Source: a virus (lineage: Duplodnaviria; Caudoviricetes). From it: a DNA stretch of 47,817 nucleotides. The stretch lies in the IMG/VR virus record IMGVR_UViG_3300026196_000007, positions 1 through 47,817 of that record; one strand, given 5' to 3'. The notes below the pieces were generated by a model, which saw only the letters and a program-made list of their open reading frames with translations, made no database searches and was not told the DNA's origin. Below, in pieces: positions 2,835 to 20,636 of this stretch. Position 1 is the first letter of the stretch. Every line of letters starts with the position of its first letter. Position numbers and translations under genes: made by a program.

Positions 2835-2899
2835 TGTTAACCAATAAATCGACGCGGATGCCGCAAACAGCGCGGAACCAGTTATTTTGGCGATTGGGT
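2835..2899 (+). mobile_element. attC-like site, degenerate R'
   Basis: TGTTAAC-CAATA-AATCGACG...AGTTATT-TTGGCG-ATTGGGT. Confidence 0.55.
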
Positions 2900-3028
2900 T
2901 AAAGAAGCCCCGCGAGGTTTGAAATCCCGTTAGCGACTCTCCGTTGGTTGTCCGGCCAATCACTGGTCACGCTGTCTATGATCTCAAGAAAAGAGTCAAA
3001 CTCGACCTGAGTCCGCAGAATTCACAGG

Positions 3029-3430
3029 TCATGATTTCCTTTCAATAACAACTACGTTCTCACCATCTAGCACAACGTCGGCTATTCTTGGCTTCCAGCG
3101 CATTGCCGCTCCATTGCGATTCAGTTTCACTTTGCGCCATGACCACAGCTCGCACGGTGCGTGTTTAAGCCATTCGTAGACGGCTTCGTTGCGCTCTTCC
3201 ATGAGCTTCTTAACGTGCTCTGAATAGGCCTGTCCGCATGACTGTACGGCGACGATTCCAGCCGTAGGGTCAATGCAGATAATGTCGATGAACCCGAACA
3301 GATCTTGTCGTATTCCAAACGCTCCGACGTTCCGGTTGAATCTTTCTACAATACCGCACAACCTGCCTTGTTCGCGCATTGCTTTGAGCGTTCTCTGTGT
3401 TGGGCTAATTCCTGCCATGTCTATTCCCAC
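3029..3430 (-). CDS. PD-(D/E)XK-like nuclease, possible Holliday junction resolvase
   Basis: SPTQRTL...QDLFGFIDIIC...VAVQ pattern. Confidence 0.55.
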   Translation of the reverse strand: MGIDMAGISPTQRTLKAMREQGRLCGIVERFNRNVGAFGIRQDLFGFIDIICIDPTAGIVAVQSCGQAYSEHVKKLMEERNEAVYEWLKHAPCELWSWRKVKLNRNGAAMRWKPRIADVVLDGENVVVIERKS

Positions 3431-3530
3431 TTGTTTACACGTTCCCGCGCAACTGCAAAATATGTTTCGTCAAGCTCAATGCCTATGAAGTTCCGGCCAA
3501 GGTTCTTGCAAGCTACGCCGGTTGTGCCTG
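3421..3530 (-). pseudogene. Orphan C-terminal fragment of an N6/N4 DNA methyltransferase
   Basis: SGTTGVACKNLGRNFIGIELDETYF duplicates the C-terminus of the 4067-4843 frame. Confidence 0.8.
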
Positions 3531-4112
3531 AACGCTGTGCCTGTACACTCTTGCAATCCAAGTATAAAAATCGTTCTCGCTCATTGTATGTTTTGCAAAG
3601 TTGCAATATTTACAACATGCAACAGTATTGCTACCAGTGTACCCTTTTGAATTGTTAACTCTATCTACCCCATTGCATTTGAGGATATGGTCAGACAATC
3701 GTTTTCTGGCGTTTGACTCGTTAAGTCTATCTTCAATCTCTTTTGAATGAGATAGCCCACAATATTTACAAGGGGATTTAGATAATAGAGAGAATTTTCT
3801 AAAACTAATAACATTACTAAAGCCCATTTTTTTATTTCTTCGCTTTAGATGGCTATATTGAACTCTAAGTAAGGCTTTTTCCCTATCTTCAAAAAGTCCG
3901 TACTGGTTCCCACGTCTTAGTAAAAATTCAGTGAGAAGACACCCGCAACTTTTAGATTTTTTACTAGAAAGATTATCGCCAACTACTATCTTGTTAGCCC
4001 CACAATCACATTTACACATCCATAGATGTTTTCCTCTGTGGTCTTTTCCTTCGTGCTGTATGACAACTAATCGCCCATACCTCTGCCCTGTCCTGTCTTT
4101 AAACGCTGGCAT
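3513..4112 (-). CDS. HNH-type homing endonuclease
   Basis: GQRYGRLVV, CKCDCG and SCGC N-domain; CKYCG...GVDRVNNSKGY...CCKYCNFAK; AT-rich. Confidence 0.8.
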   Translation of the reverse strand: MPAFKDRTGQRYGRLVVIQHEGKDHRGKHLWMCKCDCGANKIVVGDNLSSKKSKSCGCLLTEFLLRRGNQYGLFEDREKALLRVQYSHLKRRNKKMGFSNVISFRKFSLLSKSPCKYCGLSHSKEIEDRLNESNARKRLSDHILKCNGVDRVNNSKGYTGSNTVACCKYCNFAKHTMSENDFYTWIARVYRHSVQAQPA

Positions 4113-4843
4113 TCTATTGCACCATTTACCCTTTTAACTCCAATATTGTAATAATCTTTATCTAATTCGATCCCTATGAATCTACGGTTTAGATTAACAC
4201 ATGCAACACCAGTTGTAAAGCTACCAGCGCAGAAATCAAGTACCGTGTCGCACTTGTTGGTGTAGGTCTTGATTAGGTACTCCATCAAGGCTACTGGCTT
4301 TTGCGTTGGGTGCATCCTATTTCTTAAGTCTCTGTTGCATTCTATCAAGCTTGTTGGGTATCGTTTGCCTTTGTTCTGAGTTATATATCCTTCTTTTGTC
4401 CCAGTCTTCCCGAAAACCTCATTATCATTATACTTGCGTGTAATTGTATATGCCTTCCCGTCTGTAAACTGTGGGTTATAATTTGGAAGTTTTTTATAAA
4501 ACACAAGGATATTCTCGTGTTTCTTTAGCGGCATTTTGTTTGCATTTAGGTTTCCGGTACCCTGCTCCTTCACCCATAGCCACTCGTATCGCAGCATATT
4601 TAAATTACTAACGCCGAGCACTTTGTCAAAAGGAGTTTGCGCCATAAGTAAAATAGCACCGTTCGGCTTAATGATCCGCTTAAGTTGTTCCCACATCGGC
4701 GCAAGAGGAATAATCGAATCCCACTTACACGCTGTAGTTCCGTAAAGCTATGGAGGGTCTGCAAGAATCATATCCACTGATGAATCAGGGATAATTTTCA
4801 TTACATCAAGGCAGTCGCCGCAATGCAACTCAAATTCTTGCAA
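4067..4843 (-). pseudogene. N6-adenine/N4-cytosine DNA methyltransferase (beta class) with an in-frame TAG in the DPPY motif
   Basis: TTG start at 4843 after AAGGAG; HCGDCL...ADPP*LYGTT; HPTQKP; VLDFCAGS; TAG at 4748-4750. Confidence 0.8.
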
Positions 4844-4863
4844 ACCCAAATCTCCTTGTTTGC

Positions 4864-5355
4864 TCATATTAAATATCTACCAATATTTGATTTAATGTTC
4901 TCCCATTCTTCTTGGGTCATATCATTTTTGCACCTGTTCTCAAACCACGTCAAGAATTGTATATTGCGTAGCTCGTTCGTTCCCCCTTTTGCCTTGGGAT
5001 GAATATGATCAATAGATGGTTTTAAGTATGCTTCTTTCCCAGAATTGACCCATGTTTCATATATGGCATTAAATTGTCCACATGAATAAAAAAACAATAA
5101 ATAGTCTTGATACCATTCTGTAGAAACATCAAACCGCCCAGACCTGTTAGTTATGCAATCATTGAGCAGTTTTAGTTTTTCTATGTCATCAAATTGAGAT
5201 AACCACTCAGCAGTAACGGCAAACCGCGAGTGAGATGCCATATTCTTATATACTGATTCTTTGGGCATCTTCTTACCCTTAGACCATGTTTTGCGCCCCA
5301 TGCAAGCCTTACTAATATTGTCCCTGTGCCGTTGTGTAAATATTCTCTTTTTCAT
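4864..5355 (-). CDS. HNH endonuclease with NUMOD3-like N-terminus
   Basis: SIDHIHPKAKGG...NIQFLTWFENRCK; AT-rich. Confidence 0.85.
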   Translation of the reverse strand: MKKRIFTQRHRDNISKACMGRKTWSKGKKMPKESVYKNMASHSRFAVTAEWLSQFDDIEKLKLLNDCITNRSGRFDVSTEWYQDYLLFFYSCGQFNAIYETWVNSGKEAYLKPSIDHIHPKAKGGTNELRNIQFLTWFENRCKNDMTQEEWENIKSNIGRYLI

Positions 5356-5362
5356 ATGGGTA

Positions 5363-5391
5363 TATATACTCTATACTTGCAGACTTGTCAA
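5363..5391 (-). promoter_or_regulatory. Sigma70-type promoter for the HNH gene
   Basis: TTGACA-17bp-TATATA with the ATG about 7 nt downstream. Confidence 0.6.
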
Positions 5392-5395
5392 TAGA

Positions 5396-5569
5396 CTAAC
5401 AGCAAGTAAATGGCGGGTCGGGCAGTACCAGGTCAACGCTCCCGGCTTCAAGCGTTCCCATCAACTGGAGGCAATCCCCGTGCAGGAGTACAGGTTTATT
5501 AATAAGGTGTTTCATCGGATTGGCACCAGCGCCGGTGCCGGTGTCTTCTATGGTTTCATCTTTGTTCAT
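5396..5569 (-). pseudogene. Orphan N-terminal fragment of an N6/N4 DNA methyltransferase
   Basis: Manual translation: LLHGDCLQLMGTLEAGSVDLVLPDPPFTCC*; similarity ends at DPP. Confidence 0.8.
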
Positions 5570-5585
5570 TCTTTCATGCTCCTAG

Positions 5586-6530
5586 TTATGCCAGCCGGTG
5601 AGCTTGGCGGTTAACCACGTCCAGCCAGTCATGCCCTACCGTCACCGGCGTGAAAACCTGGACCGACAACTTGTTGATTACCGACAGTCTGTTGGCTAGT
5701 TTATATGCCGCCTTTTGTCCAGCAAAATTTTGGTCATTATCAGCAATTATTATGGCCTCTTTCACGGCTGGCGGCGGGATAAATGATTCCATCAGCGAGG
5801 TGCTCAGCGTTGCCCACACCGGTATTCCGAGATCGTCATGTGCAGCTATTGCCGTCTCTATCCCCTCAGCTACCCCTAATATACTGTCGCAATCGTAAAG
5901 CCTCACCGCACCCCCAACCATTTGCCCGATGCATGGCATGTGCATTTTTGGTGCTGCAACTGGTAGTTTGTTTCCTTCAGGTGTCAAATATATTCGCTGC
6001 ATTGTTACTGCTTTGTTGTCTGCCCCTGTAAATACTGCCAGCAATGCGTGTTCATTCTGCTTCGTCTCCACGTTCCAGCATTTTCGAGTATGCCTCAAGC
6101 ATCCCGGGATATCCTTCAACCCCCGGTTTGTAAGATATCGGTGCGCAACGTCACCACGTCTTATTGGTGCCGATTCAATAAATGTTTTCCTTAGCAAATC
6201 TGGAGACACCGGCTTTTCTTCCGGGACAGGATTCAGTTCGCAATTACCTACAATGCTCGCGACAGCCTCCATAGCTTCCCTTACATCGATGCCGAGCACC
6301 CTCATAACCAGGTCGATTCCGAACCCAGGACCACAGCCATTGCAATAATACGATCCCCTTTCCGCAACGTTCCTATCGACCCTGAACCTGTCAGATTTTT
6401 TAGATCCTGGTGAGCAGGCTGGGCATGGACCGTGACGTCCTGTTTCATTTACGTTTATCCCGAGTGACCTCCATACGCTTAGCCACTTTCCGCTGGCCGC
6501 TTTTTTAACCGCATCAAATTCTACGGCCAC
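5586..6530 (-). CDS. Phage primase (Zn ribbon + Toprim)
   Basis: HGPCPAC...DRF...CNGCG; VAEGIETA; IIADND. Confidence 0.9.
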   Translation of the reverse strand: MAVEFDAVKKAASGKWLSVWRSLGINVNETGRHGPCPACSPGSKKSDRFRVDRNVAERGSYYCNGCGPGFGIDLVMRVLGIDVREAMEAVASIVGNCELNPVPEEKPVSPDLLRKTFIESAPIRRGDVAHRYLTNRGLKDIPGCLRHTRKCWNVETKQNEHALLAVFTGADNKAVTMQRIYLTPEGNKLPVAAPKMHMPCIGQMVGGAVRLYDCDSILGVAEGIETAIAAHDDLGIPVWATLSTSLMESFIPPPAVKEAIIIADNDQNFAGQKAAYKLANRLSVINKLSVQVFTPVTVGHDWLDVVNRQAHRLA

Positions 6531-8061
6531 GATCTTTGCTCTTCGCTTTTTTGATATTCAGATGGATGATAAAGTTGATAAATGCGTCGTCAGGTTCGAT
6601 TGGGGAAACGTCGCTCACGTTCCGTGGCCATACTCCGGTACGTTCCCGGTATTTGTGCGCGGCCCACCCGTGCCTGTATCCTTTCTGCAGTTGATATGCC
6701 AGGCACATCCCATACCATCTCCTTTTGTCTGCCTTTGTCATCCCCTTCTTTCCGGATATTTCCTCAAGCGTCCCCTCCTGAACCTCTACTTTCCGCCCAA
6801 ATGAAGTAACTGGACTACCGCAGTCAGGGCAAACCTTAGACCCTTCAAACACCAGATGGCAAGCCGAGCATTTTGTTGGCCGCTTCTCCTTCTCTTTTTT
6901 CTCGACCTCTCTGTATGCTTTCTCGTTTCCTTCGAGCGTCCACTCGACGACATCAGTCAAATACCCGTGGTCCTCGATGCACCCTACATGGTCAAATATT
7001 TTGCAGTCTGGATACATGGATGATACTCTAAGTCCGCGGCCACATGCCTGGCGATAAAGTCCTAGCGATTTGGTGGGCCTGGCCATTACCACACATGAGA
7101 TGTTTGGGCAGTCCATTCCTTCCTGATACAGCGCAACATTGCAAAGCACCGTCAGTTCTCCGGATTGCATTTTTCGGAATACCAGATCCCTTTCGTCGTC
7201 GCTGGACCTGGCATCTAGGTGGGCTGCTGAGATTCCAACTCGCAGGAATTCTTCGCATACACTGATTGAGTGTTTCACCGTCAAACAGAAAACTATGGTA
7301 GGCCGTCCATCTGCTGCCCTGAGCCAGTTATCTACTATATCGCCGGTTATCTTTTTGGTGTTCGTTCTCGCTTCAATTCCCTTTATATCATAATCTCCCC
7401 GAACTATTTTAACCCCGCTCGTGTCAACTGTTGAAGGAGCATAGTACCTTGGTGTGGCTAGATGGCCGGCTTCAACTAGCTCCTTAACACCGATCACATC
7501 CACAATCTTTTCGTAAATATTCCCCAGCGGCTTGCCATCAGACCTCATCGGTGTAGCGGTACACCCAATAATAACTCGGTCATGGTACATCTCCAGGGTT
7601 TCCATGTACACTTTTCCCAGCGACCTGTGACATTCGTCGATAAGGACAACCTGCGCATCGACAAAAAACCGGCTGTTTTCGAGTTTAATCCTTCTTGAGT
7701 ATGTTTGGTATGTCCCGACCTGCACTTTTTTATGCATCTCTGAGTCGACACCCGCCATAATCACTCCGGCATCAATCCCGAACTTTAGTAGCGTTTCCCT
7801 CATCTGTGCGACCAGGTTCCTCCGGTGTACCAGCCATAGTACCCGGCATCCCTTTGAAATAGATAGGCGAATAATCTCTGCCATTATCCAACTTTTACCA
7901 GCTCCAGTAGGCAATGCCAGTATGATTTTTTTGAATCCACTTGCAACCACGTTCCTTGCCTCGTCGACGGCTCGCTGCTGGTAGTCTCGCAACACTGGCA
8001 TGTCACTCAAAACAGCCTCTCTTGTTCTCATTTCGGCGCCTGTAAACTTGTAGGCAATCAC
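6514..8061 (-). CDS. Superfamily 2 DEAD/DEAH-box helicase with C-terminal Zn finger
   Basis: LPTGAGKS, DECH, TATP, QACGRGLR, CxxC...CPDCG. Confidence 0.93.
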   Translation of the reverse strand: MIAYKFTGAEMRTREAVLSDMPVLRDYQQRAVDEARNVVASGFKKIILALPTGAGKSWIMAEIIRLSISKGCRVLWLVHRRNLVAQMRETLLKFGIDAGVIMAGVDSEMHKKVQVGTYQTYSRRIKLENSRFFVDAQVVLIDECHRSLGKVYMETLEMYHDRVIIGCTATPMRSDGKPLGNIYEKIVDVIGVKELVEAGHLATPRYYAPSTVDTSGVKIVRGDYDIKGIEARTNTKKITGDIVDNWLRAADGRPTIVFCLTVKHSISVCEEFLRVGISAAHLDARSSDDERDLVFRKMQSGELTVLCNVALYQEGMDCPNISCVVMARPTKSLGLYRQACGRGLRVSSMYPDCKIFDHVGCIEDHGYLTDVVEWTLEGNEKAYREVEKKEKEKRPTKCSACHLVFEGSKVCPDCGSPVTSFGRKVEVQEGTLEEISGKKGMTKADKRRWYGMCLAYQLQKGYRHGWAAHKYRERTGVWPRNVSDVSPIEPDDAFINFIIHLNIKKAKSKDRGRRI

Positions 8062-8082
8062 AGTTGTTTCCCCTTGTAAAAT

Positions 8083-8808
8083 TTAAACGTAAACAGGCAC
8101 CCCGGCAACCTCTTGTACCAGTCGCTTAAATAACGCCTCATCGCTGTGAGCTCCGGACAGGTGCAGCAATCGCACCTCGCGCAGCCTGGCCATTTTGCTC
8201 TTTCTGATCAATTCGACCACCCGCTCGATGCTCATATGGTGCTGATATATCCTGTTTGCAAGCGTTTTGTTGGTTGTGCCTGAATCAACGGCCTCATGCA
8301 ATAGTTTCTCAGAAAAATTGGCCTCGATCATGAGAATTGAACAGTCCGGAAAGGTGTGATCCGAAAATCCTGTATCGGTGATGAATATCAGTTGATCGTC
8401 ACCATCTTCGATCATATACCCCGTGCAGTCGTAGTCTTCATCGTGGCGGAGGGGGAATCCGTAGACCCTCCAGAAAATGGTCCTGGCAAAATCATGCTTC
8501 AAACCTTGCCCGTTCAGAATCACGTTAATCTTGTGAGAAAGGGACCGTTCTGGCACATTTAACCGGCTGGCAGTGGTTGCATTTGCAATCACCGGTATAC
8601 CGGCAAGCAACACCTCCCTGACCGCAAGACAATGGTCCCGGTGAGCGTGGGAAATACAACAAGCTTTGATGCGAGCTATGTCGAAATTGAGCGCCGCCTT
8701 GATATCTCGCCATTTTATCCCACACTCAATCAGGAGTTCGTGTTTGCCAGAGGATAGGTGGTAGCAGTTACCTTTGCTGCCACTCGCTATGGTCTTTACT
8801 TGGATCAT
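8083..8808 (-). CDS. Metallo-beta-lactamase-fold nuclease
   Basis: SGSKGN, SHAHRDH, TDTG, IEAN, HMS and LLHLS motifs. Confidence 0.9.
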   Translation of the reverse strand: MIQVKTIASGSKGNCYHLSSGKHELLIECGIKWRDIKAALNFDIARIKACCISHAHRDHCLAVREVLLAGIPVIANATTASRLNVPERSLSHKINVILNGQGLKHDFARTIFWRVYGFPLRHDEDYDCTGYMIEDGDDQLIFITDTGFSDHTFPDCSILMIEANFSEKLLHEAVDSGTTNKTLANRIYQHHMSIERVVELIRKSKMARLREVRLLHLSGAHSDEALFKRLVQEVAGVPVYV

Positions 8809-8838
8809 GGTTTACCCTTTTTGCAAATTTAAACCTAT

Positions 8839-8886
8839 GGCCAACAAAGGTTTCAACCGGACGAGCCGGTTAAACCAGCGTTAGCC
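8839..8886 (+). mobile_element. attC-like site
   Basis: GGCCAAC-AAAGG-TTTCAACC-GGACGAGCC-GGTTAAA-CCAGC-GTTAGCC. Confidence 0.8.
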
Positions 8887-9255
8887 GGCGTATTCTTCAT
8901 CTCCGTACATGTTCTTGCAGTTCCCTCTTAAAACCTTCTGCCCAAACTCTCCGAATCCGACTTCAACGAAGTCCCAAGGGTTACTCCCATCGCCATAGTT
9001 TGATTTTTCAAGCTCAACCACGAAGCGGTCCCGCAACTCGTCGCAAGCCTCGCTCTCGGCCCACCCTTTTTTAGAGCCATCTGGCAGCATTACCACTGTG
9101 GTTTTGTTGTTAATTAACGGTGGCCCAACGACAAACATTTTCCCGTCCTCGCCAGGTAGCGACTCGATGAAACGCGATATTCTGTCAACTTCTTCTTTGC
9201 TCCATGTTGTGGCCACTATAGCGTTGTTGTTTTCGACCCCCATCCTATCCTCCAA
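8881..9255 (-). CDS. Hypothetical protein
   Basis: 124 aa; stop codon lies in the attC R' box. Confidence 0.7.
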   Translation of the reverse strand: MEDRMGVENNNAIVATTWSKEEVDRISRFIESLPGEDGKMFVVGPPLINNKTTVVMLPDGSKKGWAESEACDELRDRFVVELEKSNYGDGSNPWDFVEVGFGEFGQKVLRGNCKNMYGDEEYAG

Positions 9256-9278
9256 GTATTTTGTTAAGAGTTTTCATT

Positions 9279-9680
9279 TTAATCTCCAACACTCAAGTCT
9301 ACATCAGGAACAATCACAGATGGCTTAAAAATCACCTTATAGCGGTACGTACTTACACTTGACGATTCTAGTTGTTCAACAAAATAACTCACATTGTCAG
9401 ACAGGCCGAGAAAGTGCTTCTTGAAAGTCGTGTCGCTGGTCTTGCACGTAACCTCAAGTTGGTTTCCTTGATCCTCTATTGAACACCTCCCTTCGATTGA
9501 CAATAAATACGTGTCTGTGATTCCATTAAAGAACACAACACGTCTTTCAATCTGAAACATCTCGGCGGCTTTTGAGAGGTTACGTGAGGCAACCTGCGAA
9601 TCAGTGCTACAGCCAGAAAAAAAAGCTAACAAAAAAATCAAGCTGACTGCTAGAAGTACTGTGGTTTTTGTGTTTTTCAT
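9279..9680 (-). CDS. Phage lipoprotein
   Basis: Signal peptide with lipobox FSGC. Confidence 0.75.
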   Translation of the reverse strand: MKNTKTTVLLAVSLIFLLAFFSGCSTDSQVASRNLSKAAEMFQIERRVVFFNGITDTYLLSIEGRCSIEDQGNQLEVTCKTSDTTFKKHFLGLSDNVSYFVEQLESSSVSTYRYKVIFKPSVIVPDVDLSVGD

Positions 9681-9750
9681 TTTCTATTCCTTTTTTATTG
9701 GTTTTACCGCTGTCCTTATGGTAGCAGCTTATTAAGCCATTATGATGTCC

Positions 9751-10281
9751 CTACAGTGATCCGTCTTCGTATCCTGCGCGGTAGCCGCATTTCGGGCAGA
9801 TCGTGACACCTCTAAATCGGTAATCAGTGCCGTCTTGCGTTCCTTCGCTCCATGTCTTTTCCAGAATGAAGGTGGTGCCGGTTTCATCTTCGGAAAGATC
9901 AACTTGGCATCCTTCGGGACTGCTGCAGTGATAACACTCTCCGCCACTAATGGCATATCCCGCGGTGGTTGCCCCGATCCTGTGAACCACCCGCGCAGTC
10001 CACGGATACGTCTGCCTGTACCCACCCGTCCAATCACAGAATGGTCGCCACCCGTCATAGTTCAGCCACTTGCAAAATTTAAACATTGTCCAGTAAAGCG
10101 ACCACCAGTGAAGGTTTGGCCAAAAGTATTTCCTGTGAAACTCAGATGTTTCGGGAGTCCAACAATCATTTCTCCGCGGTATCCAGCGTATACCGAACGA
10201 ACCTTCAGCAATCATTTTCCAAAATAACCAACGCCGAGGCCGCACAAAAATCCAACCGTAGCAGTAAAATAATGCCGTCAT
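9751..10281 (-). CDS. Hypothetical Trp-rich protein with two CxxC motifs
   Basis: 176 aa, RBS upstream, CYHC and CPKC. Confidence 0.65.
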   Translation of the reverse strand: MTALFYCYGWIFVRPRRWLFWKMIAEGSFGIRWIPRRNDCWTPETSEFHRKYFWPNLHWWSLYWTMFKFCKWLNYDGWRPFCDWTGGYRQTYPWTARVVHRIGATTAGYAISGGECYHCSSPEGCQVDLSEDETGTTFILEKTWSEGTQDGTDYRFRGVTICPKCGYRAGYEDGSL

Positions 10282-10306
10282 CTTTTCCCTCCGTGGCCCG
10301 AACGCA

Positions 10307-10355
10307 TCATAACCAAACGTTCGAGCCTATTCAGGCTCAACTAAAGCCGTTATAT
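10307..10355 (+). mobile_element. attC-like site
   Basis: TCATAAC-CAAAC-GTTCGAGC-CTATTCAG-GCTCAAC-TAAAGCC-GTTATAT. Confidence 0.75.
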
Positions 10356-10356
10356 G

Positions 10357-10527
10357 CTACCAGCAGCCTATTGTATCTCTGTATGCCTGCTCAGCTGCGT
10401 CATGTGCTTCTTGCTCATGCTCTGCATATATGTCTCGCACCTGCTCCCTATATTCCTTATCAGAAATTCCACCATTTTCTAATTCTTCTTCAACCTGTTG
10501 TATCGCTTTATCTACCCAGTGCAACAT
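10357..10527 (-). CDS. Hypothetical 56-aa protein (not in ORF track)
   Basis: Manual translation MLHWVDKAIQQVEEELENGG...DTIGCW*; GAGG RBS; fills the space between two attC-like sites. Confidence 0.6.
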   Translation of the reverse strand: MLHWVDKAIQQVEEELENGGISDKEYREQVRDIYAEHEQEAHDAAEQAYRDTIGCW

Positions 10528-10554
10528 AATTTAATCCTCATTGTTAAGCCTTGC

Positions 10555-10889: not shown

Positions 10890-10908
10890 TTCTAAACCTT
10901 CTACCTCC

Positions 10909-12840: not shown

Positions 12841-12888
12841 GGTTTTTTCCTTTTTTTTGTCAGTTATTGTTGCCCGTTGTCAGCGGCG

Positions 12889-13131
12889 TTATATTTTAAT
12901 CCAGTACCATCTTTTGCAACCGGCTATCAGTTCAGCCTCTGTCATATCGCCAAGGCACGGGACGACGCCCCCGGCGACAATTTCATATTTCTGTAATTCA
13001 TCTTTGAGTAATTCATTATCACCCTCGAAAATCCAATACTCGCCAGTAACATGGGTGCAATTATCAATAAGGAACTGATTGGTTTCTGACGTCTTAACAA
13101 GCGAGGTCAAAAATTCCATGTCTGCCTCCAA
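12889..13131 (-). CDS. Hypothetical protein
   Basis: 80 aa; stop within GTTATAT at 12888. Confidence 0.6.
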   Translation of the reverse strand: MEADMEFLTSLVKTSETNQFLIDNCTHVTGEYWIFEGDNELLKDELQKYEIVAGGVVPCLGDMTEAELIAGCKRWYWIKI

Positions 13132-13132
13132 A

Positions 13133-13225
13133 ATATAACAATCGGTTCAACGCAGATGGCGGGATCTGCTGTTTAATTTTTATTCGCGTTCGGTGGCCCG
13201 CCACTGGTTAACCGAAGAGTTGTGC
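13133..13225 (+). mobile_element. attC-like site
   Basis: ATATAAC-AATCG-GTTCAACG-CAGATGGCGGG...CCCGCCACT-GGTTAAC-CGAAGA-GTTGTGC. Confidence 0.8.
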
Positions 13226-13285
13226 CACCATAAAATCATCAAGCTTTGGTATTAATGTTTCCATGGCTCGGCGTTGGGGTTTCAA

Positions 13286-13597
13286 TCACACACCAATCTC
13301 CCGCCGCAAGATGATCATGGCCGCAATGTAGTTGATTGCCCCAAGTAGATCCTCAATCGCGCGGTCATCATCTGGACAATTTAGTGCCTCAAGGATCTTT
13401 TTTCTCGCCTGGAAGGCCGGGCCACCTGGCCCACACTCCCGGCCGCCCGTCATAATAGGTTGTTCGAGGAATGGCCGGCCATTTGCGTGGCGCTGTTTTC
13501 CTTTCCCCTTGGCTGCTTGGTCTAGCGCTTCGCCAAGCACAGCGGCGAGGGGCGCATAATCTTCGTCTTTTGACTCAATGGCTTCTGCGGTTATCAT
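13286..13597 (-). CDS. Phage hypothetical helical protein
   Basis: QAAKGKGKQRHA...QARKKILE...DLLGAINY; likely start MITAE. Confidence 0.7.
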   Translation of the reverse strand: MITAEAIESKDEDYAPLAAVLGEALDQAAKGKGKQRHANGRPFLEQPIMTGGRECGPGGPAFQARKKILEALNCPDDDRAIEDLLGAINYIAAMIILRREIGV

Positions 13598-13643
13598 AAA
13601 AATTACTCCCCAAGTAGTTAAAGTGGAGGTGAGAACCAGACAA

Positions 13644-15596
13644 TCAGTCAAGTTCAACTCGTAATGCCTTGTCCTGCTCGGACACATAAAGGAAAATCAT
13701 CTGCCCGCCGTACTCTGGCCAGCTGGTCACCTCACCAGCCCGGTCAACGAAGAGCGGTGGGGCAAAACCGTAGAAATCTGACATGATGTCAATGAAGTCG
13801 ATACTGCCCTGGACCTTGGAAGCATCGTTGATCGACCCGTAAGAAACGCCGTCAACAGTTGGGTAGCACACTTCCTTGTCGTCGCCCGAAATGATAGGCT
13901 CGAAAAGGCGGAACTTGAAAATATTGAAGTGTTTGTTCACCTCTTTTTCAAGCAGGCTGTGCTTTTCTCGAATGAACATCTCGGCAAGATACATATTGTT
14001 GTCCGCTGTATTTGATTTCGCCCTGAGATCGTCCAGCTCAGTTTGGTATCTTGCTATCCGCGCCCTTATCTCCTCGTTGGCTTCAATTGCGGATATCTTC
14101 TTGTTTGCGGCGGCAGCCTCTTCTCGGTACGCTGTGATTTGCTCGGTGATGGCCGTTCTCTTTTCTTCAAGACCTTTGGCGCTGGCGTCCTTTCCCGCAA
14201 GTTCTATCTCAGAATCGACCCTGGCTATATCCTCCTGAGCGTCAGCATGCTCCTTTGATCTCGTCTCTGTGTTTTTGATCGAAAATATTTCTTTGTCGAG
14301 CACTTCGATTTTATTGTCGAGTTCTTCTTTTTCCCTTGCAAGGTCATCTCGCCTTGAGCCGACAGCCACAAGCTCTTCGCTGGCCTTTTTCACGGCAGTC
14401 CTCGCCCTGAATCCCTCCTCTGCTATGGACTCTAGCTCGTTTGATTTTAAAACATTGAATTCGGACTCGGCGGGGCCTATGGGGTGGTCCTTCCCGCAAT
14501 GGGGGCATGTTACGACTTCATGTGTGTATGATTTGCCTTTTGCGACAGTCCACGCGACGGCGGCGGCGCTCAGCTTCGCCTTCTCCTCTGAAATCATCTT
14601 CTTAATGTTGATGATGTTAGATGCGGCAACCGCCATCTCTGAGCTTACGCGGTCACTCTCCCTTACAGTCACTCGCCGCCGGTCTTCTATTTCGGCCAAG
14701 ACGGTTTCCCTTGATCGCTCCTCTTCCAAACGGATGTTTTCAAGGTTGACCAGAAGTCCTGATTTCTTCTGCCTGAGTTCATTTAAATACTGGTCATTGG
14801 TCAATCCGGCGCGCTGTATTTCAAGCTTACTCGCAGCTTCCGTACAGTTCTTGGCAATATGCATTAATGCCTGCAGAGATTTGTCCCCTGGATCAACGAT
14901 TGAGGCCTGTGCTTCTGAAATCTTGATTTCATTTTCAAGGATATCCTTATCGGCTTTATCCCTAGATTCTTTGAAGTGCCTCTTTGAGGCACAAGCTCCT
15001 TCCCTCAGAATTATCCCTGAGATAGGAGAATATTTACTTCCAGGTCCGGCATTCTCAATTATCATTTCGTCTGTCACGCCCTTCGACAAATCAAGGAGTA
15101 TGCTCCGGCGCTCCTCCTGGTTCATTTTTTCGGCCATATGATGAATATTTGTCAGCATAATGAATGCCTTTTCATCGACCATTGACGAGATGAATCCGGA
15201 GAACTCTTTTGGCGTTTTTTTGAAGTCGTTGATAAAAAAGTTCGTATTGTGGCCTGTAAGCACTTTTCCCTTGCTGCCCCGTGGCTTGGTCCACTTCTCT
15301 GTGGCCACACGCTTTACGGTTGTCTTTACACCGTCGATCAAGTAGACAGCCTCGACTGATGTCTCCAGGTTGTGAATCTCTTCCCAGGTTGACGGGTCCC
15401 GTGGCTTCCAATCGAACACAGTGTTTCCAGCGTTGTCTTTCCCAAACCATAGCCAGGTGCAGCTGTTGGCCAGAGTAGTCTTCCCGACCTTGTTGTCGCC
15501 ATATATGCGGGCATTCTTGCCATCTAATTCTATGGTTAGGTCCTTCACGCCCTGGAAATTATGCAAACGGAGTGAAATAAGTTCCATTTTTTTCAT
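13644..15596 (-). CDS. Rad50/SMC-like AAA ATPase
   Basis: LHNFQG, GDNKVGKTT Walker A, long coiled coil with central CPHC hook, PLFVD Walker B. Confidence 0.88.
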   Translation of the reverse strand: MKKMELISLRLHNFQGVKDLTIELDGKNARIYGDNKVGKTTLANSCTWLWFGKDNAGNTVFDWKPRDPSTWEEIHNLETSVEAVYLIDGVKTTVKRVATEKWTKPRGSKGKVLTGHNTNFFINDFKKTPKEFSGFISSMVDEKAFIMLTNIHHMAEKMNQEERRSILLDLSKGVTDEMIIENAGPGSKYSPISGIILREGACASKRHFKESRDKADKDILENEIKISEAQASIVDPGDKSLQALMHIAKNCTEAASKLEIQRAGLTNDQYLNELRQKKSGLLVNLENIRLEEERSRETVLAEIEDRRRVTVRESDRVSSEMAVAASNIINIKKMISEEKAKLSAAAVAWTVAKGKSYTHEVVTCPHCGKDHPIGPAESEFNVLKSNELESIAEEGFRARTAVKKASEELVAVGSRRDDLAREKEELDNKIEVLDKEIFSIKNTETRSKEHADAQEDIARVDSEIELAGKDASAKGLEEKRTAITEQITAYREEAAAANKKISAIEANEEIRARIARYQTELDDLRAKSNTADNNMYLAEMFIREKHSLLEKEVNKHFNIFKFRLFEPIISGDDKEVCYPTVDGVSYGSINDASKVQGSIDFIDIMSDFYGFAPPLFVDRAGEVTSWPEYGGQMIFLYVSEQDKALRVELD

Positions 15597-15679
15597 GGTT
15601 TTTCCTTTACAGCGGTTTATTCTTGAAGATCAAAGCCCTGTCCCTGCAATAATTTCGGCATTTATCTCCCTCTCAATAA

Positions 15680-15744
15680 ATATAACAAAGCGTTAGAGAA
15701 TCGACGCGCACAACAGCCGCGCGCGTCTCAACTCATCGTTATTT
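15680..15744 (+). mobile_element. attC-like site
   Basis: ATATAAC-AAAGC-GTTAGAGA...TCTCAAC-TCATC-GTTATTT. Confidence 0.8.
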
Positions 15745-15960
15745 GTCGGCCAATTTGTTTAGAATTTCACCAAGACGCACATATTGTGCCTCGATGTTTT
15801 GGTTAGCAGTTTTCCAATAATCAACCAGCTCAGGGGGTATGTCTGGCCTTTTTAATGCCGCCGTTCTCTCCTTCCCCACGCTCCAATACATGGTCGAAAG
15901 GCCGATTAAGCAAACAAGAAAACATGCAGAGACGCCTACACAAAATCCAATCCAGAACAT
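15739..15960 (-). CDS. Small membrane-anchored protein
   Basis: 73 aa, N-terminal TM, AAGGAG RBS, stop in R'. Confidence 0.7.
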   Translation of the reverse strand: MFWIGFCVGVSACFLVCLIGLSTMYWSVGKERTAALKRPDIPPELVDYWKTANQNIEAQYVRLGEILNKLADK

Positions 15961-15983
15961 AACATTCTCCTTTTTGTTTATTC

Positions 15984-16068
15984 AAACAACAATTCGCTAC
16001 AGTGGATGCTGAGAACTCAGCGGTTTTGATTCAGCGTCAGTGGCGCACCACTGAGCTTTCCGTTAGAT
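15984..16068 (+). mobile_element. attC-like site
   Basis: AAACAAC-AATTC-GCTACAGT-GGATGC...GCACC-ACTGAGC-TTTCC-GTTAGAT. Confidence 0.8.
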
Positions 16069-16554
16069 TGCCTTTAAACAATCTTTGTTCATTACAAACA
16101 CTGTTTCACAGTCCCATCCATATAGAGATTTAGGATTAGTGAACCTTGTGTCATTCTCTCCATTTTCTGTTAAGTGGATAGCGTCGTATTTTCCCGCCAA
16201 TCTTTCAAAATCAATCCAAGGGAACATATCCTCTCCCTCCCAAGGAAGGCGAAGCATGTCTTCAACAGAATCAATTCTCAAAAGACTCCCTACAAACTCA
16301 AGATTGAAGCATTTGCATGTATCTCCATAGCTCTCTGCCTCACACCAGTCTTTCCAGCCAAAACAAGGACCCACAGGGCTTGTCCACAACCCGCCTTTTG
16401 GCTTATTCCTGCGAGGCGAGTTGGTTACTGGTAAAACCAGTTCTTTTTTAAACTCCAAACTACCGTAGTGAACCAACTCAAGTCTAACCAAACGCTCAAT
16501 AGGACTTGCGGAGTTTATCGGTTTTTCAGTGCTTATGGCTTCTGTCGTGTCCAT
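16063..16554 (-). CDS. Phage hypothetical protein, possibly ADP-ribosyltransferase-like fold
   Basis: HYG...NKPKGGLWTSP...YDAIHLT...LYGWDCET; first ~24 aa encoded by the attC-like site. Confidence 0.6.
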   Translation of the reverse strand: MDTTEAISTEKPINSASPIERLVRLELVHYGSLEFKKELVLPVTNSPRRNKPKGGLWTSPVGPCFGWKDWCEAESYGDTCKCFNLEFVGSLLRIDSVEDMLRLPWEGEDMFPWIDFERLAGKYDAIHLTENGENDTRFTNPKSLYGWDCETVFVMNKDCLKAI

Positions 16555-16611
16555 TAGTTTATCCTCGTTATTGGGCTTTGCATCCGCAATCCCATTAGCT
16601 CAACGTCATCT
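16482..16611 (+). mobile_element. Long attC-like site (R' GTC variant) containing a gene start
   Basis: GTCTAAC-CAAAC-GCTCAATA-GGACTTGCGGA...TCCGCAATCC-CATTAGC-TCAAC-GTCATCT. Confidence 0.8.
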
Positions 16612-16863
16612 GGCTTTGTTTTTCTCATGGTTTCTCAAGCTCTGTTCGGCATACCTCACAATGTCACCAAGGGTATTTGTCTCCGTCGGCTGTGATTCAG
16701 ACCACAGAACCCACCCTTCGTCGGTCCGCAATACTATGCGGCTGTATTCGTAGGAAATAACAGCGTCAGATAACCCGGCGCTCAACCCGGATGGAACATT
16801 GTGCGGTGCTGGCGCTGGCGGTGGTTTCTTAAATGTCGGTGGTGGATTGCTTCCTTTCTTCAT
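16606..16863 (-). CDS. Hypothetical protein
   Basis: Likely start MKKGSNPPP after GGAGGAG; stop in R'. Confidence 0.6.
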   Translation of the reverse strand: MKKGSNPPPTFKKPPPAPAPHNVPSGLSAGLSDAVISYEYSRIVLRTDEGWVLWSESQPTETNTLGDIVRYAEQSLRNHEKNKAR

Positions 16864-16901
16864 GTCTCCTCCCTTGGTTCCGGCGAGCTTAGTCGTTGGC
16901 C
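16768..16901 (+). mobile_element. Long attC-like site, imperfect L pairing
   Basis: AGATAAC-CCGGC-GCTCAACC-CGGATGGAAC...GTTCC-GGCGAGC-TTAGTC-GTTGGCC. Confidence 0.6.
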
Positions 16902-16925
16902 TGCATGAAATCCATGCGTCCTTCT

Positions 16926-17105
16926 TCATTGATCCTCATTACGACAAGGCATCTCGACGGGCTCTTTCCCCAAGCCCTGGGGTGTTTTGCTTGCGACCAT
17001 GTTTTCCAAGACCGAGGCCATAGATTTCTCCTCGACTGCAGCAATTAAGCGGAGCTTGGATAGTGTTTTTTTCCAAATCTTGATAGTCACAAATTCATTC
17101 TTCAT
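16926..17105 (-). CDS. 59-aa ribbon-helix-helix-like regulator (not in ORF track)
   Basis: Manual translation MKNEFVTIKIWKKTLSKLRLIAAVEEKSMASVLENMV... Confidence 0.65.
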   Translation of the reverse strand: MKNEFVTIKIWKKTLSKLRLIAAVEEKSMASVLENMVASKTPQGLGKEPVEMPCRNEDQ

Positions 17106-17111
17106 GTAGTT

Positions 17112-17140
17112 AATTTACACCTTGCAAGTAAAGAAGTCAA
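17112..17140 (-). promoter_or_regulatory. Sigma70-type promoter
   Basis: TTGACT-17bp-TAAATT, 6 nt before the ATG at 17105. Confidence 0.65.
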
Positions 17141-17158
17141 CAGTAAATATAAACCTAT

Positions 17159-17206
17159 GGCCAACAAAGGTTTCAACCGGACGAGACGGTTAAACCAGCG
17201 TTACAC
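17159..17206 (+). mobile_element. attC-like site, near-identical to 8839-8886
   Basis: 17150-17203 matches 8830-8883 at 53 of 54 positions. Confidence 0.8.
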
Positions 17207-17971
17207 TGACAATATCGCACGACCAATAATCTCCGGTATCTGCGGGATCACGGCGTTTCCGAGCTTGTTAATTCTGTCCACCTTATTGGGTAGCCCATCA
17301 ACCACTCTAGCCATTCCGGGTTCAATCCAGAGCTGCACATTTTCTTTCTCTGCCCCACTCCCACTATCTTGTCCAGTTTGTCCTTGGCCGCAGATCCACC
17401 GCCCAACCCAACCGGCCCCCCTCCCGGCAAACCGCGACTGCACGGAGTAGGCCACAATATAGCATCGGTCGCGCACTTGAGGGGAGCCAACGACATGACC
17501 TGGTATACAATGCCATTCTGCATCGTACCCGAGCGCGGCAAGGGAGTTAAGCACTTCCGCAAGTCCGTCAGCGCACAGCCTAGCGACATTTTCCGCAAGC
17601 ACGAATTTCGGGTTAGCTTCTTCGACAAGCCTACGCATCTCTCGCCAGAGGGAGCTTTGTTTCCCTTTAAGCCCTTCCATTTTCCCTGCCCTACTAATGT
17701 CTTGACAGGGGAACCCTCCGCAAATAACGTCAACTGCTTCTGGTAAGTCTGCTGCATGTAATTGCCTCACGTCTTCAAATATCGGCACATCAGGCCAGTG
17801 CTTTGCTAATACCTTGCGCGGAAAAGGTTCGATTTCACAAAAGGCTATCGTCCTAAATCCACCTGTCCGTTCCAATCCAAGAGAAAAACCTCCAATGCCG
17901 CTAAATAGATCAAGCACTGTATAACAAGGCGCTACACAAGGATTTGCTAACATGTCGGCATTTTCGGCCAT
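17201..17971 (-). CDS. dcm: C5-cytosine DNA methyltransferase
   Basis: LDLFSGIGG, GGFPCQD, ENV, RDRCYIV, LGNAV. Confidence 0.93.
   Translation of the reverse strand: MAENADMLANPCVAPCYTVLDLFSGIGGFSLGLERTGGFRTIAFCEIEPFPRKVLAKHWPDVPIFEDVRQLHAADLPEAVDVICGGFPCQDISRAGKMEGLKGKQSSLWREMRRLVEEANPKFVLAENVARLCADGLAEVLNSLAALGYDAEWHCIPGHVVGSPQVRDRCYIVAYSVQSRFAGRGAGWVGRWICGQGQTGQDSGSGAEKENVQLWIEPGMARVVDGLPNKVDRINKLGNAVIPQIPEIIGRAILSV
17248..17757 (-). CDS. Nested alternative-frame ORF inside dcm
   Basis: 169 aa open frame ending LNPEWLEWLMGYPIRWT. Confidence 0.45.
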   Translation of the reverse strand: MQQTYQKQLTLFAEGSPVKTLVGQGKWKGLKGNKAPSGERCVGLSKKLTRNSCLRKMSLGCALTDLRKCLTPLPRSGTMQNGIVYQVMSLAPLKCATDAILWPTPCSRGLPGGGPVGLGGGSAAKDKLDKIVGVGQRKKMCSSGLNPEWLEWLMGYPIRWTELTSSETP

Positions 17972-18048
17972 CTTCTCACTTCCCTATTTCATCTTTAATT
18001 CATACTCACAGGTTCTAAGCCGCAAACCTGTGAGCTAAGGCGTTATTT
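17919..18048 (+). mobile_element. Long attC-like site containing the dcm start
   Basis: GTATAAC-AAGGC-GCTACACA-AGGATTTGC...GCAAACC-TGTGAGC-TAAGGC-GTTATTT. Confidence 0.85.
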
Positions 18049-18540
18049 GTCAACAGAAAACAGTGCAGCGGTCCCTACCCTTCGGCTTAACACACAACTT
18101 GAGCCGGACAGAGATGCTTTGCGAAATCCATTGGTGCCCCCGTATTCAGGATCAACAGCGGCACCAGTGTTACTGTCCTTGCTCAGCTTTTCCCACTCGG
18201 ATTGCGGTTTTTTCGGCGGGGTTCGTCCGCCGAGGTCTTTGAGCAACGCCTCGTCCACCACCGCCGCCACTTGCCGCCGCAGGTGCCTCGACAGGGTGGA
18301 ACGGTTAACGCCATATTTGCTCGCCATCGCCGTGACCCCGAGCCGTTGTCCAGTCTGTTTGATTGTGTATATGATTCCGGTCCCTGATGGCCGTAGAGCC
18401 TGGTCTGTGAGCCGTTGAGGCCGATCCAACGCTTTCCAACGGTAGTACAATGTGTGGTAAGGGAGGCCGTATTCCTTGGCAAAGTTTTTAAGCAAGTCAG
18501 TCTTCCCTTTGTATGATACTCGTATTCTCTTGGCTACCAT
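18043..18540 (-). CDS. Hypothetical protein with HTH-like segments
   Basis: AKEYGLPYHTLYYR and ASKYGVNRSTLSRH. Confidence 0.6.
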   Translation of the reverse strand: MVAKRIRVSYKGKTDLLKNFAKEYGLPYHTLYYRWKALDRPQRLTDQALRPSGTGIIYTIKQTGQRLGVTAMASKYGVNRSTLSRHLRRQVAAVVDEALLKDLGGRTPPKKPQSEWEKLSKDSNTGAAVDPEYGGTNGFRKASLSGSSCVLSRRVGTAALFSVDK

Positions 18541-18790: not shown

Positions 18791-18965
18791 TTTTCTTTAG
18801 TCATCCCACTCCTCGCGAAAAAGGATCTCAATACACTCCAGAAAACCTACGAAACAGATTACTGCGAACGCTGCTTCCATATCATCTCTCCTTTAATTTC
18901 CGCCACCACTTTAAGCCGGTGGCTGATTATTTCATCCAGTCTCAACGGCGGGGTGCGCGTTATCT

Positions 18966-19646
18966 CTAAGGTAGCCACTGCCACCATCTGCCGCCATGCC
19001 CCGGATAGTCAAGGCATGTCCAATATGTATCGTTATGCCTCCCTGTTTGGTGTTTATGCCAATGGCCGAAAAACCACTGAGCCGGTTTATATTTCTCTAA
19101 TATCCGGTCAAGGGCTATTCTGTTGCTGTCACGATGCTTTCCTTCACTGCCAACAACATCAAAAGATCCCGGGCAAGTGTGGCTTATAATAATGTCAACC
19201 CTTTCCTCTATAGCCATAGCCATCTCAAACTCAGGCAAGCTGATATTTTCTTCGGAATACCAATCATGCCCCGGGGTTCGCATGTTCTTGTCAATTGAAT
19301 CAGCCCCACCGATAAATAAGACATTCCTGCCATCAGGCAGAGTTAAAACGCTGCCCCTTGATGCGTGGTAGACACCTTCGTACATTTCGTGTATAAGGCC
19401 ATCCTGGGTAAGCAATTGGTGCTCCTCATGATTGCCATCACACCAATACACATTTGCTCCGTTAGGCTTAACACCACGTAACATCCATATTTTCTGTCTT
19501 CCATATAACACAGGCTTGGGGACCTCCATTTTCGGCCACCAGCCAAAATCACCGCATTGCAAAACAATTTCCGGTTTCTTCTTTGTTAACAGAGTATTGA
19601 GTCTCGCCCAATCTCCATGGATATCTCCAACTATCAAGGTTTTCAT
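18966..19646 (-). CDS. Calcineurin-like metallophosphoesterase
   Basis: GDIHG, GDFG, GNHE, SHTCP, FGHWH. Confidence 0.92.
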   Translation of the reverse strand: MKTLIVGDIHGDWARLNTLLTKKKPEIVLQCGDFGWWPKMEVPKPVLYGRQKIWMLRGVKPNGANVYWCDGNHEEHQLLTQDGLIHEMYEGVYHASRGSVLTLPDGRNVLFIGGADSIDKNMRTPGHDWYSEENISLPEFEMAMAIEERVDIIISHTCPGSFDVVGSEGKHRDSNRIALDRILEKYKPAQWFFGHWHKHQTGRHNDTYWTCLDYPGHGGRWWQWLP

Positions 19647-19999
19647 AATTTTAACCAAACCAATGGCTTGCCTGCATCTTCGCGAGCGGCACAAGGCGCT
19701 CCACCACAGAGGATCGTTGCCGGACAATCTGACATATTGGCGGCAGCCTTGAAGGCCAGCTCTCGATTATAACCGCACGGGACCCTGACCAAGCCTCCAC
19801 CTGGCATGGTAAAAACGACATCAAACTGTTTTTGCGGAAGGGGTATTGGGTCGATGAGGCGAAGTGGAACACAGGATGTTTCGCCGTCCTCTGCCTCTAT
19901 TACAGCCATGTTGCGGCTATAAGACTTGATCCGGTAAGTTGTCATCGAGTAGGGGTTTGCTTTAACCCGCATCCCGTTTGCTGCGTCTTCGTAAGTCAT
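19643..19999 (-). CDS. Hypothetical protein
   Basis: 118 aa, GAGG RBS, stop overlaps the next start. Confidence 0.6.
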   Translation of the reverse strand: MTYEDAANGMRVKANPYSMTTYRIKSYSRNMAVIEAEDGETSCVPLRLIDPIPLPQKQFDVVFTMPGGGLVRVPCGYNRELAFKAAANMSDCPATILCGGAPCAAREDAGKPLVWLKL

Positions 20000-20202
20000 T
20001 TTCGGTCCTCAACGGTTATTTCAGGGTCACGTCCTGCGGCACAGGTCAGTATTGCGAGTATTCCTGGGACGGTCAGCAAAAGCATGATTATTGTGGGTGT
20101 CATTTTTCTCTCCTCCCTGGCTAGCCCGTGGCCAGCCGCTCACGTCAATGTTGTAGTGGGCCATCAAGTGGCTCGTCCGCTTGATGGCGGCGTTAGGCCT
20201 CA

Positions 20203-20400
20203 TCAGTCAGCGTCCAGCGCCGCCTGAATGCACTGCTTCATTCCGTCCCAGTACTTTATGTAGGCGTCTACGTCAACATCGCCACGCGGAAATATCCCAA
20301 GCTCGCAAGCCTTCTTTACTGCGGCATGAAGCATTTGATCGCTGGCAACGCGGCTTTGTTCGGTGTTCGTGGTGTCGTCAGTCATTGTCTTTGTCTCCAA
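20203..20400 (-). CDS. Hypothetical protein
   Basis: 65 aa, same strand as its neighbours. Confidence 0.55.
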   Translation of the reverse strand: METKTMTDDTTNTEQSRVASDQMLHAAVKKACELGIFPRGDVDVDAYIKYWDGMKQCIQAALDAD

Positions 20401-20432
20401 GTTTGGCGGCTGCCTGCCGCACAGCTTTAGCG

Positions 20433-20636
20433 TTATAGATCCTTCACACTCATCGTATTATCCACCCCGCTTTGTTTCATCAATTCCCGCAGGAACGCCG
20501 CCTGCACCCTTGTCGGCCTCCGCTGCCCGGATTCGATCCTTGATATCTCTGTGTTAAAAATCCCCATTTTCTCGGCAAGCTGTGCTTGGGTTAGACCCAG
20601 GCCCAGTCGGGCTTGTTTGAATTCTTTGTTGGTCAT
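20433..20636 (-). CDS. XRE/Cro-like HTH regulator
   Basis: FKQARLGLGLTQAQLAEKMG...ISRIESG.R.P. Confidence 0.9.
   Translation of the reverse strand: MTNKEFKQARLGLGLTQAQLAEKMGIFNTEISRIESGQRRPTRVQAAFLRELMKQSGVDNTMSVKDL

Follow-up and report, generated by a model that had tools for sequence, protein, structure and literature searches.

Why does a tailed phage carry, between its early genes, a series of hairpins with the anatomy of integron attC sites, turned against the genes that they separate? The question is posed by IMG/VR record IMGVR_UViG_3300026196_000007, a viral sequence of 47,817 nt, the whole of which is the window studied here. A preliminary description recognised about 14 attC-like palindromes on the + strand, took the open reading frames (ORFs) between them for reverse-oriented cassettes, and supposed that a host integron integrase (IntI) might shuffle them. 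The element is a set of clustered attC sites without an integrase (CALIN), built of genuine attC sites, with cassettes in a non-canonical orientation and a recurrent layout that is specific to phages. With a probability of about 0.7, the inverted attC sites between the early genes act as swap points for the IntI of the host or of a co-infecting phage. Recombination of this phage's own cassettes we can only infer, since it has no close relative.

Identification of the attC sites

A strict scan was made for AAC, 5 nt, an 8-nt L'', a loop, a 7-nt L', 5-6 nt and GTT, with perfect L pairing required. Between 2 and 21 kb it found 6 sites on the + strand and none on the - strand, with none in each of 100 dinucleotide shuffles of this region and none at 21-47.8 kb. 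The unpaired base is the fourth of L'', in the left arm on the + strand, in all six perfect sites, as had been claimed; when any of the seven other positions is removed instead, no site remains. That this asymmetry marks the top strand of attC agrees with the aadA7 control (Qi 2023, PMC9892861, Table S3), which has an 8-nt L'' with its fourth base unpaired in the left arm.

A covariance model was built in this study from 56 attC sites out of 132 pattern-collected bacterial loci, including one site from a prophage contig (L089) and one that is likely false. At E<=5 it gives 17 matches in the genome. Fourteen are among the 15 starts listed by the preliminary description, all with + as the top strand: ten at E<=0.03, and those at 2835, 17159, 10555 and 16768 at E 0.1-3.8. 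The expected + strand cluster without intI is therefore present. The remaining three are weak: E 0.91 at 5497, E 1.6 at 26076 (within the virion region) and E 4.4 on the - strand of the site at 8839. Those at 5497 and 26076 are regarded as chance, and the virion region is taken to be free of sites, as reported. A scorer combining a position-specific scoring matrix with pairing, from the same training alignment, reports 13 sites, every one on +; in 15 shuffled genomes it reports on average 0.27 each. Both the scorer and the covariance model miss the AT-rich P12002L sites.

The fifteenth listed start, 11167, lacks the GTT of R' but has 7 of 7 L pairs. The boxes are complete at 12 sites; R' is altered or absent at 2835 (GAT), 9624, 11167, 16482 (GTC) and 18085. 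The half sites reported at 20432 and near 18084 are present, the latter being a site at 18085 without R'. The site at 9624-9745 had been overlooked, as had lone half sites at 2559, 12888 and 13273 with the motif G/TT, where the slash marks the crossover. In constrained folds of the bottom strand, the recombinogenic structure lies within about 1.5 kcal/mol of the minimum at 8839, 10307, 10555, 13133, 15680 and 17159, and is 2-9 kcal/mol worse at most other sites folded.

Both their architecture and a model trained on sites from bacteria mark these hairpins as attC. It is very improbable that they act instead in RNA, as terminators, processing sites or translation couplers of the early transcript, with an attC likeness that is ancestral or incidental. 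They do lie between genes on the coding strand, several are terminator-like by score, and some contain a ribosome binding site (RBS) and start codon. However, conservation extends to the AAC and GTT boxes, the fixed spacers and the unpaired base at position four, Rfam gives no match to the hairpins at E<=1, and DNA breakpoints fall at the IntI crossover. A side role in RNA may exist beside recombination.

A CALIN has at least two attC sites on the same strand, less than 4 kb apart, and no intI. The sites from 8839 to 18048 form one such cluster, with 2835 lying 5.9 kb off. It is not a complete integron, there being no IntI in the window, while attI and Pc had no separate search. Nor are its cassettes canonical: in a canonical cassette the gene occupies the top strand of attC and lies upstream of the attC that belongs to it. 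In agreement with the preliminary description, 9 of the 10 window segments have their ORF on the bottom strand and one is unclear.

Anatomy of the inverted cassettes

In ten genes the stop codon is the three bases after a crossover (genes ending at 8881, 10610, 11523, 12889, 15739, 16063, 16606, 17201, 18043 and 20433), and in five the start codon lies inside the attC to the right (9680, 10807, 16554, 16863 and 17971). The crossover TTA is often provided by the stop codon, and sometimes the hairpin contains both RBS and start. Because genes stop at the crossover and start inside the right-hand attC, the unit cut by IntI would be a gene together with the attC upstream of it. The same anatomy is seen in other viruses, where 106 of 247 inverted segments have a stop ending exactly at the crossover and 59 of 406 sites have a start within the attC body.

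The site runs cover 2560-2892, 8881-11522, 12889-13273 and 15739-18187. Genes for a helicase, a primase, an MBL hydrolase, RecT and an SbcC-like ATPase also sit between attC sites, so what had been called an array is made of attC-bounded reverse cassettes but is not one continuous array. The core-gene stretches are not excisable without harm.

Gene orientation in phages and bacteria

Viral loci came from two pattern scans (125 and 128 loci, 80 of each taken with flanks) and 9 earlier loci. Segments were the 120-1,600 bp between same-strand sites, with the best ORF on each strand scored by codon model and RBS. In 432 viral segments the better ORF is on the bottom strand in 247, on the top strand in 25 and unclear in 160. 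In 198 bacterial segments it is on the top strand in 144, on the bottom strand in 6 (two of them from a prophage contig) and unclear in 48; thus the premise that ordinary cassette genes lie on the top strand holds for 144 of 150 classifiable segments. By cluster (n=116), 88 viral clusters lean to the bottom strand and 8 to the top, with 20 ties. When 75 of 93 pairs of candidate ORFs were drawn for comparison with PHROG, 22 of the bottom-strand members had a match and none of the top-strand members. Among the 22 are seven DNA methyltransferases, two PAPS-reductase-like proteins, a tRNA-guanine transglycosylase-like protein and a Mom-like protein. The inverted layout is general among the attC-carrying phage loci sampled. 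No cassette is common to the 198 bacterial and 432 viral segments, a small sample. Such arrays are confined to a minority of phages, since none of 80 viral loci chosen by a homologue of gene 9279-9680 holds attC near it.

Phage CALINs have already been published; the inversion of their genes is the part for which no earlier account was found, most subscription papers being outside the reach of the search. In the parts of Qi 2023 (PMC9892861) available, attC clusters without intI are described from the genomes of phages, where DNA methyltransferases often accompany them. Of the 6 sites tested there, IntI1 recombined 5; it recombines attC1 and attC2 of PH101 with the bottom strand preferred. PH101 and TJE1 are called typical in that text, which there makes no mention of gene inversion. 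These two PH101 attC sites are inverted relative to the annotated genes. By the model used here, PH101 (NC_029094.1, 75919-77987) has 4 sites on + and its genes on -, and ctTUS972 has 5 sites on - and its genes on +. The two published phage CALINs that are inverted relative to their annotated genes thus lie in PH101, as given, and in MW202573, 2069-3738.

Module boundaries and exchange

Where different phages carry a near-identical module, its two ends are mostly at the G/TT crossover. For example, a 1,041-bp methyltransferase module, 98.6% identical between contigs L189 and L333, has both ends at a crossover and carries only its upstream attC. The attC body reaches 80% identity or more in 26 of 48 viral pairs with a common left flank and in 2 of 16 with a common right flank; for bacterial pairs the picture is alike, with 8 of 12 and 0 of 8. 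At high identity, the left-shared viral pairs lose identity 2-6 nt right of the crossover (19/19) and the right-shared pairs 1-4 nt left of it (7/10; bacterial control 5/5). The expectation that module edges would map to G/TT is thus borne out in other phages of the same layout; this phage has no close relatives in which to follow it.

These boundaries bear on the proposal that, although IntI brought in the attC sites, their main present role is to offer the phage's RecT-type annealing protein short homologous linkers, with swaps by homologous recombination. A RecT-like gene lies mid-region. L162 and L187, the one near-identical phage pair to differ by 1.7 kb, have their break within a shared repeat formed by two attC sites that hardly differ, so that homologous recombination fits equally well. 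In some left-shared pairs the attC bodies are hybrids (identity 0.7-0.9), pointing to exchange inside the hairpin, and 3 of 10 right-shared pairs reach 9-72 nt into the body. However, the 7 of 10 right-shared pairs that lose identity no more than 4 nt from the crossover do so despite unlike attC bodies, an outcome not predicted by homology-driven exchange, and the unpaired base and the spacers, needed by IntI only, are kept. The linker proposal is therefore considered unlikely.

The sites could also be scars, left without function where host cassettes inserted antisense and lost their own, silent genes. Many window sites are decayed, short remnant segments occur (11149-11208, 13220-13273 and 18043-18187), and core genes too sit directly downstream of attC sites; in addition, cassette insertion by IntI at GWT sites is reported to show no obvious bias in orientation (Loot et al., bioRxiv 10.1101/2022.09.11.507474, in the part available). 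Scars are nevertheless quite unlikely, given that bottom-strand genes travel between phages as crossover-to-crossover units, that starts lie inside attC bodies at the viral sites counted above and in five genes here, and that top-strand ORFs have no PHROG match.

Exchange by IntI remains the preferred explanation, and several points weigh against it. The L162/L187 break and the hybrid attC bodies are two, and the pairs in the boundary comparison are not independent events. In a comparison of whole cassettes, the difference between own and neighbour attC is not significant (9 pairs, p=0.21). About one third of the viral segments are unclassifiable, and TJE1, a published phage CALIN of 3 sites, has normal orientation. 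Within the window, the recombinogenic fold is near the minimum for only 6 of 18 candidates, the sites at 2835, 9624, 11167 and 18085 are decayed, and no gain or loss is seen for the phage's own cassettes, close relatives being absent. One sequencing run, possibly the source, contains this DNA in the form of contigs, with no cassette joints among the matches listed, but rare circles would not show in contigs; no RNA data set containing it was listed. The host is indicated by one gene at ~70% identity.

The phage and its replication backbone

This is a lambda-like tailed phage. Its terminase, portal, capsid-protease and tape measure genes occupy 34.7-47.7 kb, and the genes for primase, helicase, MBL hydrolase and the RecT-like and SbcC-like proteins lie at 5.6-15.6 kb. 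The single-stranded DNA-binding protein (SSB) has the only annotated gene on the + strand; every other annotated gene is on -, including all of those between 2 and 21 kb. Bases 1-12 are identical to 47806-47817, and this 12-nt direct terminal overlap sits 59-70 bp upstream of the small terminase gene. By analogy with lambda it is probably a cos end, and because of its presence there the genome is probably complete despite a CheckV completeness of 65%.

The search for close relatives found none. Its RecT is 43-51% identical to those in viral contigs and 39-63% to those in metagenomes, its own contig set aside; the helicase gives a single match (60%), and the SbcC-like gene and ORF 16063 give none. 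INPHARED yields short pieces only, the 30 matches listed out of 72 all being at the VG64 gene. Five phages with the same SbcC-RecT-MBL module have these genes near adjacent and without attC, the RecT-MBL distance being 6-562 bp against 2.9 kb here. No attC was found in 27 loci of RecT or helicase relatives, many of them short. Since relatives keep RecT and MBL close and without attC, the cassette runs appear as insertions into a known replication backbone. Two of the backbone genes are those for the RecT-like annealing protein (11737-12840, -) and the SbcC-like ATPase (13644-15596, -).

Possible source of the integrase

A six-frame search of the phage genome found no IntI, tyrosine recombinase or resolvase, as the preliminary description had stated, and a host IntI would act on this phage in trans. 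The named homologues of its SSB, at ~70% identity, are mostly from Desulfobulbales. In the order that holds Desulfofustis, which we take to be Desulfobulbales, the group indicated by SSB, IntI scores over the cut-off in 63 of 101 sampled genomes. Terminase relatives are present in 15 of 301 genomes of this likely host order; 12 terminase-relative regions from 8 of the 15 hold one attC and do not have the early region in common.

A viral contig, L219 (CheckV completeness 44%), encodes a full-length TIGR02249 integrase (479 bits, cut-off 265) beside 9 attC sites. In its region 5319-11405, intI is co-oriented with the inverted cassette genes and the usual intI-to-attC polarity is kept, with a lone crossover at the attI position just ahead of the intI RBS. 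The bottom-strand genes include those for a DHH phosphoesterase and a Mom-like protein. Three of its ORFs (5358-5726, 6704-7186 and 9814-10050) read through the attC bottom strand and have recurrent tails of the PNV(E/K) type, which are a possible protein-level marker for such arrays.

A 35-kb prophage contig in a Salinisphaera genome (L089; L185, 364-741) also has inverted cassettes. The same genome encodes an intact IntI on another contig and would be a cultured system in which to examine action in trans.

Comparison with known systems

In the published material available, the phage CALINs of Qi 2023 (PMC9892861) resemble this one in having attC clusters without intI and DNA methyltransferase cargo, but hold 2-4 sites per CALIN in the supplementary table against about 14 plus remnants here. 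The accessible accounts of bacterial integron arrays and CALINs (Cury 2016, PMC4889954; Bouvier 2009, PMC2727003) describe the same attC anatomy, the first extrahelical base setting the strand, the G/TT crossover and cassettes of a few hundred bp. In contrast to those cassettes, the gene here is on the bottom strand, its own attC is upstream and its stop codon is at R' rather than R''. In contrast to those integrons, there is no intI (attI and Pc had no search of their own), and cassette runs are interleaved with core genes. Expression of the cassettes is presumably from phage promoters. Inverted-integrase integrons of Treponema and others (Cury 2016, PMC4889954) share a reversed element, but there intI is reversed relative to attC, whereas here the genes are; PMC13323075, as far as available, concerns integrase orientation only. 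Single attC sites lacking an integrase (SALINs) and attG sites, where IntI inserts at GWT outside integrons, fit the lone G/TT boundaries seen here; in the part available (Loot et al., bioRxiv 10.1101/2022.09.11.507474), SALINs are on bacterial chromosomes and without an obvious bias in orientation, and in this phage there is a single orientation, antisense.

Proposed mechanism and its implications

Under exchange by IntI, the unit would run from one G/TT crossover to the next and comprise a gene and its upstream attC. Secondary GWT (attG-type) sites in the replication backbone may have received the first cassettes, with attC x attC recombination adding those that came later, while some modules would be immobilised by decayed sites. 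Of 133 genes that come first beyond a detected array, 37 end in TAA/C, compared with 98 of 2,015 control genes; this excess fits attG-type entry, some cases probably being undetected decayed sites. The cargo is phage genes, here and in other phages often for DNA-modification enzymes, with a likely anti-restriction benefit.

The preferred reason for the inversion is that, in a packed phage operon, insertion at TAA/C and antisense to the operon would be the only kind that leaves every gene unbroken. The recombinogenic strand would then also be the non-template one, and possibly the lagging template. In the sections available of the papers concerned, strand choice is set by the first extrahelical base, the identity of which matters little, and attC polarity is thought to make a captured gene face the integron promoter (Bouvier 2009, PMC2727003); folding is favoured when the bottom strand is placed on the lagging template (Loot 2017, PMC5371416). 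On the + strand GC skew is negative throughout, confounded by the coding strand. Opposite-strand pairs of attC clusters are seen in phages G005 (L342), L160, L220 and L284; two-strand arrays such as that of G005 do not separate replication from transcription as the source of polarity.

A wider proposition, held tentatively and at less than even odds, is that tailed phages run a mirror-image integron of their own, in which attC placed at the stop codons of ordinary phage genes yields a phage-only cassette pool, rich in DNA-modification genes and shuffled by host or phage IntI. If so, host cassettes would be silent in a phage array and phage cassettes silent in host integrons because of their opposite polarity, and a route of cassette creation, a long-open question, would be visible. 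Genesis by insertion of empty attC circles is not supported: the predicted lone crossover between gene start and own attC is not enriched (68/243 against 153/637 controls, p=0.22). By eye, such a crossover was seen at 2835, 10555 and 15984. Cassette genesis becomes testable with gene 9279-9680, which lies between attC-type sites here and is without attC in the 80 other viral loci.

A phage-wide pool of opposite polarity would mean that phages use host cassette machinery for their own accessory genes, plausibly for varying anti-restriction and other early functions. Swapping of attC-bounded units would give a defined mechanism for part of phage mosaicism. Standard integron annotation, which is blind to gene strand, would miss the inverted layout.

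Sites and genes along the window

All attC sites below are on the + strand and all ORFs on the - strand. The leftmost crossover is a lone G/TTAGAC (2559-2565), the likely left boundary of a cassette at 2560-2892. Its attC (2835-2898) is degenerate, with R' GAT, 5 of 7 L pairs and E 0.1 by the covariance model, and is upstream of a membrane ORF (2208-2822) fused in frame to a pyrophosphatase-like gene. The membrane-like ORF runs through the lone crossover into the latter, which keeps its own RBS and ATG at 2540; the fusion was apparently made by cassette insertion.

The second run opens with a 48-bp attC (8839-8886; 7 of 7 L pairs, 38.8 bits) that holds at its crossover the stop of an ORF of unknown function (8881-9255, phrog_11375). 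This site is a near twin of that at 17159, divergence starting just past G/TTA. The Phage_VG64/phrog_478 gene (9279-9680) starts within the overlooked site 9624-9745, which has 7 of 7 L pairs, R' mutated to ATT and no covariance model match, and is probably inactive. Two ORFs without a family match, of 176 aa (9751-10281) and 56 aa (10357-10527), are separated by an attC with 7 of 7 L pairs and a 7-nt spacer (10307-10355, E 0.011). An attC with 6 of 7 L pairs (10555-10615, E 0.4) is followed by an ORF of 65 aa (10610-10807), which stops at the left crossover and takes its ATG from the R'' box of the site that follows (10804-10889, E 0.01), where the L box is degenerate with four Watson-Crick pairs and one wobble. 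The best-scoring attC (11066-11154, 49.7 bits) closes segment 10884-11148, which has no ORF above about 20 aa beside its RBS-like motifs; read by eye, it contains a hairpin and then a T run on the - strand. A remnant (11167-11214) keeps 7 of 7 L pairs, lacks the GTT of R' and has no model match; an ORF of 77 aa with a weak match to phrog_9348 follows (11206-11439). The run ends with an attC of 6 of 7 L pairs (11469-11528, E 0.021), with the stop of ORF 11523-11822 at its crossover.

The third run begins with a lone G/TTATAT (12888-12894) holding the stop of ORF 12889-13131, the likely left boundary of cassette 12889-13219. It has an attC of 6 of 7 L pairs (13133-13225, E 0.013) and then a 54-bp remnant ending G/TTGGGG at 13273.

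In the fourth run, two attC sites with 7 of 7 L pairs, at 15680-15744 (31.4 bits) and 15984-16068 (32.4 bits), hold at their crossovers the stops of ORFs 15739-15960 and 16063-16554 (phrog_8582). The loop of the next attC (16482-16611, E 0.03), where R' is GTC and the stop at the crossover TGA, carries the RBS and ATG of ORF 16063-16554. A weak attC (16768-16901, E 3.8) carries in its loop the start of ORF 16606-16863. An ORF of 59 aa (16926-17140) has a sigma70-like site (17140-17112) within the same segment; promoter-like sites overall are not commoner in the window than in shuffles. The attC at 17159-17206 (7 of 7 L pairs, E 0.13) precedes a cassette gene for a C5 cytosine DNA methyltransferase (17201-17971), with its stop at the left crossover and its start within the next attC, of 130 bp (17919-18048; 7 of 7 L pairs, 29.5 bits). 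ORF 18043-18540 has its stop at the crossover of that site and reads through a remnant (18085-18187) that keeps R'', L'' and L' and has no R'. Beyond these runs, a lone G/TTATAG (20432-20438) holds the stop of a helix-turn-helix regulator gene (20433-20636).

Elsewhere in the early region, an N4/N6 DNA methyltransferase gene is seemingly split into pieces at 5396-5569 and 4067-4696, interrupted by an HNH/endonuclease VII-like gene (4864-5355). The split region (3513-5569) has no intron family match in Rfam, and a second HNH-like ORF (3513-4112) follows the methyltransferase pieces. In the region 600-1820, about 800 bp without a recognised gene precede the SSB gene; a long inverted repeat lies near 665-700, and this stretch is a possible origin or control region.

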